Source: a virus (taxonomy: Duplodnaviria; Heunggongvirae; Uroviricota; Caudoviricetes). From it: a stretch of 4,527 bases of DNA. A program made the translations under genes and the position numbers. The notes under the pieces are model-generated. The model had not been told where the DNA came from. It did no database searches and worked only from the letters and a program-made list of their open reading frames with translations. The stretch is taken from the IMG/VR virus record IMGVR_UViG_2648501338_000001; one strand, given 5' to 3'. Position 1 is the stretch's first letter, and each line of letters starts with the position of its first letter. Positions 1-4,527 of the stretch are shown here, one piece after another.

Positions 1-42
1 CCGTTGACGGACTTCAGGGGAAAAACGAGTATTTTTAGTCAT
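1..42 (-). CDS. IS3-family transposase OrfA, N-terminal fragment (first 14 codons; continues past window edge)
   Basis: Reverse complement of 1..42 is ATGACTAAAAATACTCGTTTTTCCCCTGAAGTCCGTCAACGG, translating to MTKNTRFSPEVRQR. An AGAGG Shine-Dalgarno-like motif sits a few bases upstream on that strand. I recall this N-terminus from IS629/IS1203 OrfA. Confidence 0.7.
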   Translation of the reverse strand, partial: MTKNTRFSPEVRQR

Positions 43-96
43 CCTGTTTACCTCTTTCTCAGGAAGTTTAGTCTCCAGGATTCCCGGGGCGGTTCA
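1..96 (-). mobile_element. IS3-family insertion sequence, IS629/IS1203-like, orfA-proximal end only; the element continues beyond the window start
   Basis: Positions 1..96 are the exact reverse complement of 4431..4526 (verified base by base). The terminus at 96 reads TGAACC on the minus strand, fitting the IS3-family TG...CA ends. The arm contains the start of a transposase OrfA reading frame. The IS629 name is from memory of the OrfA N-terminus. Confidence 0.8.
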
Positions 97-146
97 ATAA
101 GACCGAAAAACTCAATATTGATGGTATTAATGATCCAGCTAAACGG

Positions 147-767
147 ATGGCTGCATTAGAAAAACTCAATGAAAACCATCAAAAACGGATGGCTGCAATT
201 GAAAAGAAATATGCTGATGCTCGCCAGTCAATAGCCGATGATATGTATGGCGGTTTTGCTGCTGCAATGACTCTCTTCGGGCAGGAAAACACTAAAGCTA
301 TGCAGATGGCTTTCAATGCTCATAAAGCATTCTCCATTGGACAAGCGACGGTGAACATGTGGACGGCTGCTACCGATGCATGGAACGATCCGACCAACGT
401 AACCACAGGACAAAAGATCGCTGCTGCTGCATTGGCTGTTTCTCAGAACATGGGGAACATCGCAAACATCAAGTCTACTAACGTTAGCGGTATGGCTCAT
501 GATGGTATCGATAATATCCCTCGTGAGGGTACATGGTTGCTTGATAAGGGTGAACGAGTAGTTGATCAGCGTACTAACGGTGATTTGAAAGACTTCCTTG
601 CTGCTCAAAAATCAGGCGGTGGCAACTCTCAGCCGATTGAAGTTAACGCACCTTTGAACATTAACGGCAACGTTAATAGCTCAGACAAGATGGTCATGGA
701 TGCTATCAAACGTCACGCTAAGTTAGTTGCTCAGGCGGTAGAAGACGCACAACGCCGTAAGATGTAA
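147..767 (+). CDS. phage tail tape measure protein, C-terminal fragment; the 5' part of the gene is replaced by the IS arm (reading frame is open from 72 across the 96/97 junction, first ATG at 147)
   Basis: The ORF ends with TAA at 765..767. The translation has a TMP-like C-terminal region (GMAHDGIDNIPREGTWLLDKGERVVD) and a short repeat KRMAALEKL / KRMAAIEKK. It lies immediately upstream of M/L/K/I/J-like genes, the lambda-type order. There is no plausible N-terminus: the frame runs straight into IS sequence. Confidence 0.65.
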   Translation: MAALEKLNENHQKRMAAIEKKYADARQSIADDMYGGFAAAMTLFGQENTKAMQMAFNAHKAFSIGQATVNMWTAATDAWNDPTNVTTGQKIAAAALAVSQNMGNIANIKSTNVSGMAHDGIDNIPREGTWLLDKGERVVDQRTNGDLKDFLAAQKSGGGNSQPIEVNAPLNINGNVNSSDKMVMDAIKRHAKLVAQAVEDAQRRKM

Positions 768-769
768 TT

Positions 770-2031: not shown

Positions 2032-2077
2032 TCCCTTCTCCCTAAGCCTAGTAAATAACTGCATGGAGGTATTCAAC

Positions 2078-2497
2078 ATGCTAAAAACTAGGCTTATCAC
2101 CGATTACATCAATTCTTTAATAGGTCAGGAGTTCGTTCAAGGTGAGAATGATTGCAATCTAATTGCATGTAAGATCATCGATATTCTCGCTGGTACTGAC
2201 CTATATAATTCTCTTTATAAAAAATATTCAACTAAAGAAGAAGGCTTGAAAATCTGCAAAGAATTAAGCGGGTATTCAAATATCCTTCAACCAATTAAGA
2301 AACATTTCAAATTAGTCACTGATGATTTACAGGACGGCGACTTACTGGTCACAGCCCACAAATTAGGAAACCGTAATTATTATTCCGTAGTTCCTCATTA
2401 TTCCGGTTATGGCCTCGTTGAAGAAGATGGTATCTGGATGACCATTCCTGTTTCAGACATTGACTATGAACAAGTTTATAGATTCGGGGGTGAATAA
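2078..2497 (+). CDS. small tail assembly protein at the K position (139 aa), with a possible papain-like/NlpC-P60-type Cys...His arrangement
   Basis: ATG at 2078 has a GGAGGT motif 6 nt upstream. The stop TAA at 2495..2497 overlaps the next ATG. The translation contains GENDCNLIA, then GDLLVTAH, then VVPHYSGYG, reminiscent of NlpC/P60 catalytic motifs. The ORF-track start at 1922 was rejected because that extension overlaps the L-like gene and has no ribosome-binding site. Confidence 0.4.
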   Translation: MLKTRLITDYINSLIGQEFVQGENDCNLIACKIIDILAGTDLYNSLYKKYSTKEEGLKICKELSGYSNILQPIKKHFKLVTDDLQDGDLLVTAHKLGNRNYYSVVPHYSGYGLVEEDGIWMTIPVSDIDYEQVYRFGGE

Positions 2498-4479
2498 TGG
2501 GATTTGAAGTATTGGTAGGCGCGGTTATTGCTGGTGCTTCGGCGGGGATGGCGGCAGCCGCAACATTTTTGGTTATGACCGCAGTCGCTATCGGTATGGC
2601 TGCTGGTGCAATGACCTTGATCGCTTCCACTGTAGGCGCACCAAAAACACCGAAAGTACAAAGCCCGGATAATGCGGTGACACTAGGAACATCAAACGAT
2701 CCTAAGACAGTATTACCCGTTCTTTTTGGTACTACCCGCACGGGTGCAATCTGCGTTTATAAGGCAATTTCCAAGCAAGAAAACAATAAGTTAGTGCAAA
2801 TCTTCGCAATTGCCGAGGGTGAAATCGACCATTACAAAGCACTGTTTATCGATAACAAAAATGTTCTTGTTGGTAAGAACATGACGATCCGTGATGGTGT
2901 ACTGGACAAAGGCAACATTAAAGAAGAATACCGGAAAGTCTTAGAAGTTGAGTTCCGCACGGGTAAGAATCCTAACACCGCTTTGTCACTGGCAAAACGT
3001 CATTTAGGATCAGACTGGAACGACAACTACAAAGGCAATGGTATTGCAACCATGTGTATTGTGTTACGTCGTGATGACAAATCTCTTGCTGCTGGTGTTG
3101 ATATTCTCCAGCCAAATAGCCAGGTAGCAGTCGATGTTATGGGCTTAAAGATTCGTAACCTTGAAACTAATGCTATTGAGGCTAGCACTAACGGCGTGGA
3201 CCAGATTTTCCACTACCTAACAAATGAAAAATATGGTTTATCAGTACCAATTGAAAACATCAACGTTGATTCATTCCTGAAAGTACGTAAACAAGTACGC
3301 CAGATGGACCTACATTCAAACGGTGCATGTGATCCGAACGCCAGCTTTAAAGAGAACTTGACTAGCCTTATGCAGACTTTCGGCGGGGTGATGTTCGAAT
3401 CCTTCGGAAGAATTACCCTGAAACTGGATGCTCCTGATATTGTTAAGCATACCTTCAATGAAGACAATATCATGATGGGTAAGGTATCACTGAAAACAGG
3501 TGGCACTAACGGTTATTTCAATACCATTAACGCGATGTATCAAGAACCATCAATTGACTATTCAGAGCAAATGCTACGTTATCCGGCTGATGCTGAAAAC
3601 GATGCTACTATTCGTCAAGATGGTCGAATTATCGCTAAAGATATTGAATATCGTTTTGTTAAGTCTAAAGCCCAGATTGATAAACTTGCGAGTGTAGAAC
3701 GAAATAAATCTCGTATCACTCAGGTTATCAGCTTTATGACTACTGACGCATTCACTGCCGAAGTTTGGGACGTTATCAGCGTAACCTATGATGAATTGAA
3801 GCTGAATAATTCCTTATGGCGTATTACTGCAATTGATCGCTCGATTGATTCTGGTATTGCTGGGATGATGACTATCACCGCCACAGAATATAATTCTCAA
3901 GTTTATACTGACCTGAACTATGCGGCAACTCCAGACAATAGACCAAGTGGTTTACCGGATTCAATGACAGTACAGAAGCCTACTAATTTCAGAATTAAGG
4001 CAACTGGTGAAACCATCTATGGTAAGAACGTTACTTTGACATGGGATGCACCGGAAGATTTTAACCGCTACGGTTTCCAGATTGATTACCGTGTAAGCGG
4101 ATCACCTAACTGGATTAAGCTCGGTCAGACTTCACAGCAAATTTTCAGTGTCAATGCACTGGCTAAAGATCGCTCTTATGATTACCGAGTTTGTGCTTTC
4201 GGTATCATCGCTCGATCCGATTGGGTAGAACTGATTAACCAGAATCCTACTGTTACCTATGAATTGCCGACTCCGGTTATTCGAATCAAAAATCAGGGTA
4301 GCACGCCAGGAACTTTCGAAGGTAATGATCTGATTATCGAATGGGAAAATCAGCAACAATTAGATGTTGAGATCAACGGTGAAACTAACAAGTTTAGTGA
4401 CCTGTTTGAAGCATACATTATCAAGGTGACTGAACCGCCCCGGGAATCCTGGAGACTAAACTTCCTGAGAAAGAGGTAA
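2497..4479 (+). CDS. tail tip / host specificity protein, lambda gpJ-like, with an N-terminal gpI-like hydrophobic Gly/Ala-rich segment; 3' truncated by IS insertion (native sequence 2497..4430, the rest is IS-encoded)
   Basis: ATG at 2497 has GGGGGT upstream. Residues about 1..90 are a Gly/Ala-rich hydrophobic stretch followed by APKTPK and VLPVLFG, resembling the lambda gpI C-terminus (APKARTP...VLPVLYG). The next part (LVQIFAIAEGEID...) resembles the lambda J N-terminus (LLSVIDAISEGPIEG). A fibronectin type III-like pattern lies at about 3979..4236 (TLTWDAP...YDYRVCAFG...RSDWV). At 660 aa it is much shorter than lambda J as I recall it; the frame enters the IS at 4431 and stops at 4477..4479. 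Confidence 0.75.
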   Translation: MGFEVLVGAVIAGASAGMAAAATFLVMTAVAIGMAAGAMTLIASTVGAPKTPKVQSPDNAVTLGTSNDPKTVLPVLFGTTRTGAICVYKAISKQENNKLVQIFAIAEGEIDHYKALFIDNKNVLVGKNMTIRDGVLDKGNIKEEYRKVLEVEFRTGKNPNTALSLAKRHLGSDWNDNYKGNGIATMCIVLRRDDKSLAAGVDILQPNSQVAVDVMGLKIRNLETNAIEASTNGVDQIFHYLTNEKYGLSVPIENINVDSFLKVRKQVRQMDLHSNGACDPNASFKENLTSLMQTFGGVMFESFGRITLKLDAPDIVKHTFNEDNIMMGKVSLKTGGTNGYFNTINAMYQEPSIDYSEQMLRYPADAENDATIRQDGRIIAKDIEYRFVKSKAQIDKLASVERNKSRITQVISFMTTDAFTAEVWDVISVTYDELKLNNSLWRITAIDRSIDSGIAGMMTITATEYNSQVYTDLNYAATPDNRPSGLPDSMTVQKPTNFRIKATGETIYGKNVTLTWDAPEDFNRYGFQIDYRVSGSPNWIKLGQTSQQIFSVNALAKDRSYDYRVCAFGIIARSDWVELINQNPTVTYELPTPVIRIKNQGSTPGTFEGNDLIIEWENQQQLDVEINGETNKFSDLFEAYIIKVTEPPRESWRLNFLRKR

Positions 4480-4527
4480 ACAGGATGACTAAAAATACTC
4501 GTTTTTCCCCTGAAGTCCGTCAACGGG
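4431..4527 (+). mobile_element. IS3-family insertion sequence, IS629/IS1203-like, orfA-proximal end only; the element continues beyond the window end
   Basis: The terminus TGAACCGCCCCGGG begins at 4431. Positions 4431..4526 are the exact inverted copy of 1..96. It contains an AGAGG ribosome-binding motif and the OrfA start. Confidence 0.8.
4485..4527 (+). CDS. IS3-family transposase OrfA, N-terminal fragment (first 14 codons; continues past window edge)
   Basis: ATG at 4485 followed by ACT AAA AAT ACT CGT TTT TCC CCT GAA GTC CGT CAA CGG, translating to MTKNTRFSPEVRQR. The AGAGG motif lies about 8 nt upstream. Confidence 0.7.
   Translation, partial: MTKNTRFSPEVRQR

Follow-up and report, generated by a model that had tools for sequence, protein, structure and literature searches.

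A contig of prophage tail genes in Escherichia coli bounded by two oppositely oriented left ends of IS629

Introduction

Members of the IS3 family, including IS629, transpose by a copy-out-paste-in mechanism and generate target duplications of 3-4 bp. IS629 is amplified in STEC, where it inserts into prophage genes (PMC7430833; PMC9397093), and its sites differ between close relatives, which makes it a strain-level marker (PMC7430833).

The sequence analysed here (the window) makes up the entire 4527-bp contig JHSS01000047.1 of the E. coli draft assembly GCA_001266095.1. Its closest described counterparts are the IS629 insertions in STEC prophages (stx2::IS629 in O157:H7 FRIK1275; Sakai prophage Sp5), with which it has in common the element itself, with an identical left end, and the kind of target, a prophage gene. 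It departs from those cases in that a prophage of another, non-lambdoid-looking kind, equipped with T4-like fibre modules and with a large serine recombinase, is hit in its tape-measure and tail-tip genes, and in that two apparent copies of IS629 bracket a short segment in inverted orientation.

The presence of two inverted copies of one IS around a unique segment is also a feature of composite transposons of the Tn5 and Tn10 type. Unlike in these, nothing in the window points to joint movement of the whole. The insertions appear to be sequential and in situ, the bracketed unit does not recur among the 5426 complete E. coli genomes compared, and on either side it is a left end of IS629, a copy-out-paste-in element, that faces the interior. 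A third comparison is with short-read contigs that break at repeats, from which no difference was found: both ends of the window lie 96-97 nt inside a repeat present in many copies per genome, and sister contigs end at the same place. Regarding its gene content, the interior shares gene order and family matches with the siphovirus tail-tip module.

Results

Identity and extent of the terminal repeats

A repeat search of the window recovered arms at 1-96 and 4431-4526 that are 96 nt long, 100% complementary and separated by 4334 nt, and a script comparison gave exact reverse-complement identity, with the right arm one base longer and reaching the end of the window at 4527. The runner-up inverted repeats within the window measure only 15-20 nt; by chance, a sequence of 4.5 kb would be expected to contain approximately (4527^2/2) x 4^-96, or ~1e-51, perfect inverted repeats of 96 nt. 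The terminal TG of the IS coincides with the arm boundary on both sides: TGAACCGCCCC begins at 4431 and its complement runs up to 96, so that on the left arm the TG on the minus strand adjoins position 97. The OrfA start codons lie at 4485-4487 on the plus strand and at 42-40 on the minus strand, and both transposase genes are directed outward, running off the contig to the right and to the left, respectively. The perfect 96-bp inverted repeat of the preliminary description, with arms pointing away from the interior, was therefore recovered in full.

Both arms are the left end of IS629, a member of the IS3 family. They agree at 96/96 and 97/97 positions with the left end of the LC567824.1 element whose annotation reads "insertion sequence: IS3 family IS629", whereas the right end of IS629 is matched at only 40/97 positions, in agreement with the earlier proposal that both arms are the same end of one IS3-family element. 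A 1310-bp copy in NZ_CP023834.1, flanked by a 3-bp target duplication, likewise matches the right arm at 97/97 positions. Membership in IS629 is further indicated by the 5'-TG terminus and left inverted repeat present in both arms, and by the ATG at 4485, which corresponds to position 55 of the element, as does the annotated OrfA start (locus 355, element start 301). In other genomes the whole IS629 is 1310 bp long and contains orfA/orfB with a programmed -1 frameshift, and target duplications at other copies are CTG (3 bp) and CCAG (4 bp). The earlier notion of two inverted IS copies holds for the left ends, which are seen in opposite orientation; that complete, oppositely oriented copies of IS629 lie at both sides would follow from the 96-97 nt visible at each.

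Contig ends within a repeat

The 97-mer of the right arm occurs, at >=95% identity, in 3553 of 5426 complete E. coli genomes and in up to 50 places per genome, which is why contigs break at IS629. As the window is a complete contig, both of its edges are contig ends, an option already raised in the preliminary description, and the arms stop where the assembler stopped because IS629 is a multi-copy repeat. Sister contigs with the same tail-tip junction end 95, 139 and 365 nt into IS629; since overhangs of 95, 96 and 97 nt were seen in two sister assemblies, no specific assembler k-mer was assigned. The length and perfect identity of the arms are thus a product of assembly and not of biology, and the contig break in a repeat fully explains both, while the contig-end and the biological readings are compatible and do not compete. 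A single circular molecule with one IS copy was excluded, since it would present one left and one right end whereas both arms are left ends.

Tail genes between the arms

The features of the window are listed in Table 1.

Table 1. Features of the 4527-bp window, with strand and supporting evidence.
Feature	Position	Strand	Evidence
IS629 left end (IRL), first 96 nt, reverse-complemented	1..96	-	Identical to LC567824.1 element 1-96
Tail tape-measure 3' remnant, last 223/784 codons	97..767	+	PHROG tape-measure families, E = 7e-36
GC-rich perfect 15-bp hairpin flanked by A and T runs, terminator-like	770..815	+	Inverted repeat; RNA fold
Distal tail protein, 186 aa, intact	818..1378	+	phrog_1302 'distal tail protein', E = 1.8e-16
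Tail / baseplate-hub-like protein, 217 aa, intact	1378..2031	+	phrog_2048 'tail protein', E = 2.5e-27
DUF6950 protein, 139 aa, intact	2078..2497	+	Pfam PF22262, E = 3.3e-12, above cut-off
Tail-tip (J-like host-specificity) gene 5' part, first 645/1258 codons	2497..4430	+	Collinear with relatives
IS629 left end (IRL), first 97 nt	4431..4527	+	97/97 against annotated IS629

The gene order is that of a siphovirus-type tail-tip module, with tape measure, distal tail protein, hub and tail-tip protein in succession. Regarding the tape-measure remnant, its PHROG matches fall at the C-terminal ends of the profiles and it is collinear with the full-length 784-aa and 809-aa genes of relatives. Upstream of position 97 its frame meets stops within the IS, and the sole in-frame start left is the ATG at 147, giving the annotated open reading frame 147-767 of 206 aa. 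The hairpin lies between the stop codon of this gene and the following gene, with an RNA fold of -24 kcal/mol (z = -6.4 against shuffles); it was not flagged by the terminator scan of the window, which accepts loops of up to 8 nt. Nothing over background emerged from the search for promoters and terminators in the window, and an Rfam search of the window gave no RNA family.

The distal tail protein also has a weak Pfam match to the DTP-pb9 B domain, and its exact sequence is found on 175 contigs. The hub-like protein matches the baseplate hub N-terminal domain PF09931 (E = 2.8e-5, slightly under the curated cut-off) and is labelled DUF2163 or baseplate hub in relatives. At the distal end, relatives carry 'phage tail tip' genes of 1249 and 1258 aa with which the tail-tip fragment is collinear. 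The fragment has weak Pfam matches to Phage-tail_3 and fn3 and PHROG matches to tail fibre and tail families, and it lacks PF09327 and PF12421, present in the C-terminal part of the relatives' proteins. Its open frame continues beyond the IS boundary as far as a stop at 4479 and is annotated as a 660-aa fusion protein (WP_072131542.1). These families and full-length relatives bear out the earlier reading of the interior as tail-tip genes with the tape-measure and J-like genes truncated. The nearest tail-tip protein of an isolated phage, that of Escherichia phage DCP80, is only 40% identical, and no nucleotide-level match was found among 50,697 phage records.

Relatives with intact genes

Three relatives, L009, L013 and L016 (the last being CP057087.1), show a single base difference to the interior, and their genes for the 784-aa tape-measure protein and the 1258-aa tail-tip protein are intact; because these near-identical relatives keep both genes intact, both truncations are derived, which upholds the suggestion of IS-driven prophage decay. 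In three other assemblies (L005, L006 and L007) the tail-tip::IS629 junction is present while the tape-measure gene is intact, and the prophage of the sister assemblies can be followed without a break for tens of kilobases as far as the tail-tip junction. The 206-aa remnant open reading frame was found on one contig of the collection, and neither IS629 junction is present in the 5426 complete E. coli genomes. Because three assemblies have the tail-tip junction together with an intact tape-measure gene, the comparison of assemblies shows the tail-tip insertion to be the older one, and the tape-measure junction, seen only in the strain of GCA_001266095.1, is private to it.

Homologues of the missing tape-measure half were sought with a relative's full tape-measure protein and with 561 N-terminal aa from the closest variant as queries, and those of the missing tail-tip half with the C-terminal 613 aa; cluster listings were consulted for both halves. 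Of 142 blocks of contigs encoding the upstream fibre protein, the 24 with the longest contigs were also examined, and a downstream 97-aa protein was looked up. Within this range, no sequence from GCA_001266095.1 was recovered. The candidate fragments P0082, P0057-59, P0119/120 and P0266 were rejected as sequences of other strains or simple contig-edge partials.

Discussion

Two successive insertions or a rearrangement

The window is, with good confidence, a short-read contig covering a prophage tail stretch between two opposite IS629 copies, which most likely result from two successive insertions. Its 4334 bp of unique sequence belong to a defective prophage of the siphovirus type and would be adjoined by the left ends of two IS629 copies in opposite orientation, the assembler having run 96-97 nt into IS629 on each side. 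An IS629 copy would first have entered the tail-tip gene, cutting it in codon 645, in an event common to the sister assemblies, and another would then have entered the tape-measure gene, cutting it after codon 561. Simple insertion predicts that the 5' part of the tape-measure gene (...AACAAGATT), with a 3-4 bp ATA(A) repeat, lies at the right end of the one IS629 (...GGAAACCCGGGGCGGTTCA), and that the right end of the other (...GGAAACCCGGGGCGGTTCA) is followed by a (T)GAC repeat and then by tail-tip sequence TAACAAGG....

One or both junctions could alternatively have arisen by IS629-mediated rearrangement, with the missing gene halves lost or distant and the 4.3-kb piece an isolated remnant, either through recombination between IS629 copies (deletion or inversion) or through deletion of flanking DNA promoted by the IS-excision enhancer. 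Loss of IS-flanking regions through this enhancer is reported for STEC with IS3-family elements such as IS629 (PMC9397093), large deletions and inversions are documented in O157 prophage regions (PMC7430833), and the searches for the missing halves, which were limited in reach, gave nothing from GCA_001266095.1, a weak negative in favour of rearrangement. On the other hand, the sister prophages run continuously up to the tail-tip junction, so at least the upstream part still existed shortly before the second event, and nothing inside the window requires a rearrangement. Simple insertion is, moreover, the commonest outcome of IS activity. A rearrangement is thus rated as unlikely, and the missing tape-measure and tail-tip halves might be either deleted or located elsewhere.

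Because two inverted IS629 copies would bracket it, the 4.3-kb segment could plausibly be inverted by homologous recombination; the junction sequences would be the same in either orientation, and the contig is therefore compatible with both. That the segment flips or rearranges at appreciable frequency in the population, or that it moves as a composite element together with the bracketing IS629 copies, is considered highly improbable; if true, the locus would be an active rearrangement hotspot and not a static scar. A site-specific invertible segment of the Hin, Gin or shufflon type, which would call for short recombination sites and a dedicated invertase inside or beside it, was rejected, as the repeats are IS ends and the five window proteins gave no match to a recombinase family.

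There is also a very small chance that an artefact of assembly, or a minority subpopulation, accounts for the left junction, the strain really being like its sisters, with one IS629 in the tail-tip gene and an intact tape-measure gene. The junction is known from one contig only, in a short-read draft assembly whose contigs end in repeats. Against this, IS629 begins at the join with its very terminal TG, as in a true insertion, and continues error-free for 96 nt; an intact tape-measure gene in most cells would have led the assembler on into tape-measure sequence, as in the sister contig JHSQ01000022.1, and the same contig is reported in two samples. The geometry of one IS present twice, inverted, around a unique segment formally fits a Tn5- or Tn10-like composite transposon moving the tail genes as a unit, which is nevertheless barely conceivable here, since no IS-cargo-IS unit was found elsewhere (neither junction occurring in the complete E. 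coli genomes), the cargo consists of truncated genes without selectable function, and the interior is collinear with the native prophage with one junction predating the other at the same location, which argues for insertions in situ and not for arrival as a unit. The "cassette" of the preliminary description is accordingly not one in a mobile sense.

Consequences for the prophage and its strain

Under the two-insertion reading, the prophage is presumably dead as a virus because either insertion alone would destroy tail assembly, and the three intact genes between the IS copies are remnants. The disruption of E. coli prophage genes by IS629 is textbook genome decay, and the locus is a case of such routine decay, an ordinary and already known situation of little biological weight. 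A perfect inverted repeat exactly at both ends of a window marks a contig delimited by a multi-copy IS, and in genome scans such edge repeats should be taken as IS-bounded contigs. Regarding the strain itself, the two junctions, ordered in time, could serve as fine-scale lineage markers, like the IS629 typing already in use for O157:H7.

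Identity of the contig and of its terminal repeats

When the 660-aa ORF was searched for by exact match, JHSS01000047.1 (assembly GCA_001266095.1; 4527 nt, range 1-4527) was the only record returned, so that the window is an entire contig of a draft assembly, as the preliminary description had allowed in suggesting that its edges may be contig ends within a repeat; the window proteins bear E. coli RefSeq accessions. The perfect 96-nt inverted repeat proposed for the extreme ends was recovered by a repeat search, with 4334 nt between the arms, and the exact reverse-complement identity of both arms was reproduced by script. 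The chance expectation for such a repeat is about 1e-51 by our own arithmetic, and the next-best inverted repeats in the window span 15-20 nt. The TG terminus is the exact end of the repeat on both sides, TGAACCGCCCC starting at 4431 and its complement stopping at 96.

Regarding the identity of the arms, the 97-mer matches loci annotated as IS3 family transposase, and 3553 of the 5426 complete E. coli genomes contain it (median of three places per genome, up to 50). One of these genomes carries it in a 1310-bp element with TG...CA ends and a flanking 3-bp duplication (CTG), and this copy is 99.9% identical to an element that its depositors labelled "insertion sequence: IS3 family IS629", with OrfA, OrfB and a 4-bp duplication. 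The window arm is identical to the start of the annotated IS629 at 97/97 positions and matches its reverse-complemented right end at only 40/97; therefore both arms are the left end of the element, in agreement with the earlier assignment to the same end of an IS3-family element. The OrfA start (element position 55) is found in both arms in positions that direct both transposase genes outward, away from the interior, as had been described.

Short-read assemblers yield contigs that end about one read or k-mer length into multi-copy repeats, and contigs of sister assemblies with the same right-hand junction run 95, 139 and 365 nt into IS629 before they stop. Since contigs end inside a multi-copy IS, the assembly accounts for both the length of the arms and their perfect identity; the two junctions themselves are biological.

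The interior tail module

Features of the window (+ strand unless stated)
Feature	Position	Extent or evidence
Left IS629 arm	1-96	OrfA start at 42-40 (-)
IS/tape-measure junction	96/97
Tape-measure gene remnant	stop at 767	last 223 codons only; tape-measure PHROGs, E = 7e-36, profile C-termini matched
Hairpin	770-815	perfect 15-bp GC-rich stem (AAAAGCCCCCATAGT ... ACTATGGGGGCTTTT), 16-nt loop, A and T runs on flanks
ATG of next gene	818
Distal tail protein		family scan, E = 1.8e-16
Tail/hub protein	1378-2031	family scan, E = 2.5e-27
DUF6950 protein		family scan, E = 3.3e-12
Last ORF (tail-tip)	2497-4479	first 645 codons, then 15 codons of IS sequence before the stop at 4479; tail-fibre and tail families in family scans
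Differing base	2570	T in window
Tail-tip/IS junction	4430/4431
Right IS629 arm	4431-4526	one base longer, to window end (4527); OrfA start at 4485 (+)

Of the 5426 complete E. coli genomes, 56 have prophage tail regions to which the interior (97-4430) aligns as one piece, with identities reaching 97.5%. In an annotated relative the gene order is fibre, tail tube, Gp38-like adhesin, two small proteins, a 2430-bp gene in the tape-measure position, three small genes and a 3750-bp "phage tail tip" gene. Together with the family scans, this alignment bears out the reading of tail genes between two IS ends, with a tape-measure gene lacking its 5' part and a J-like gene lacking its 3' part.

Different records (the window, L009, L010 and L012) call the hub-like gene at 217, 189 or 152 aa although the DNA is identical or nearly so, which is an inconsistency of start-site calling and not a sequence difference. 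Another related locus (L011 13694-14467, GCA_017840475.1) has an extra 257-aa gene with a homing-endonuclease-like NUMOD3 motif between the hub-like and DUF6950 genes, breaking the alignment to the window at ~1980-2022. The tape-measure gene is mosaic: its 809-aa (L001 7242-9671) and 784-aa (L005 5917-8271) variants are ~71% identical overall and nearly identical across the C-terminal part present in the window. Several sources apply the name "cytochrome" to a 102-aa gene lying two positions upstream of the tape-measure gene (L006 5222-5530), probably a propagated misannotation of a gene in the tail assembly chaperone position. The hairpin between the tape-measure stop and the next gene (RNA fold -24 kcal/mol, z = -6.4) looks like a terminator or attenuator within the tail operon; it was missed by a simple terminator scan because of the loop limit of that scan.

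This prophage type (window 97-4430 and loci L001, L009-L016 and L023-L028) is frequent in E. coli assemblies and joins T4-like Gp34/Gp38 fibre modules, a siphovirus-type tail tip and a large serine recombinase; it lies beside the csg locus or, depending on the genome, beside a GntR/aminotransferase gene. None of 50,697 phage records matched the interior at the nucleotide level, and the closest tail-tip protein of an isolated phage, that of phage DCP80, is only 40% identical.

Ancestral state and order of the junctions

Of the contigs retrieved for having an identical 784-aa tape-measure protein, three, including the complete genome CP057087.1, have a single mismatch to the interior and intact genes for both the 784-aa tape-measure and the 1258-aa tail-tip protein. 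Their uninterrupted target sites read ...AACAAGATT/ATAAGACC... and ...AAGGTGAC/TAACAAGG..., and these relatives support the interpretation as IS-driven prophage decay. Three other assemblies (GCA_024354245.1; GCA_001266015.1, whose prefix JHSQ is adjacent to JHSS; and an ENA metagenome contig) share the tail-tip::IS629 junction and have an intact tape-measure gene. Thus, the tail-tip insertion is shared and older, and the tape-measure junction is private to GCA_001266095.1. Neither junction was found in any of the 5426 complete E. coli genomes.

The only differing base, at 2570, is C in 7/7 near-identical relatives; the T replaces S with L at residue 25 of the tail-tip protein, within a hydrophobic N-terminal stretch, and is a strain-private SNP in an already disrupted gene. 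In another E. coli strain (L004 11713-12720; GCA_001285145.1, CYBG01000029.1), a relative of IS629 with 95% identity has inserted independently into the same tape-measure gene, with its right end ~48 nt upstream of the tape-measure junction of the window, which may reflect a locally favoured target region or coincidence.

Origin of the arrangement

IS3-family elements move by copy-out-paste-in transposition with 3-4 bp duplications. From what is known of this family, two successive IS629 insertions in opposite orientation would have cut the tail module, either of which alone should abolish tail assembly. The two inverted copies could also permit inversion of the segment by homologous recombination; inverted and non-inverted arrangements share identical junction sequences and look the same in the contig. 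In STEC, IS629 is documented to amplify and to enter prophage genes, and the IS-excision enhancer to promote deletions (PMC7430833; PMC9397093).

The main alternative, that one or both junctions derive from IS-mediated deletion or rearrangement and not from simple insertion, is rather improbable. The join coincides exactly with the IS terminus, and at this point a sister assembly continued into uninterrupted tape-measure sequence, which makes an assembly artefact unlikely. On the evidence so far, a composite transposon is rejected, given that neither junction occurs in the complete genomes, the tail-tip junction is older and the interior is collinear with the native prophage, and a single-IS circle is excluded by both arms being left ends.

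Successive insertion of IS629 is thus the preferred reading, and the preliminary interpretation is supported together with its caveat: the window represents a known element acting in a known way, within a draft assembly.
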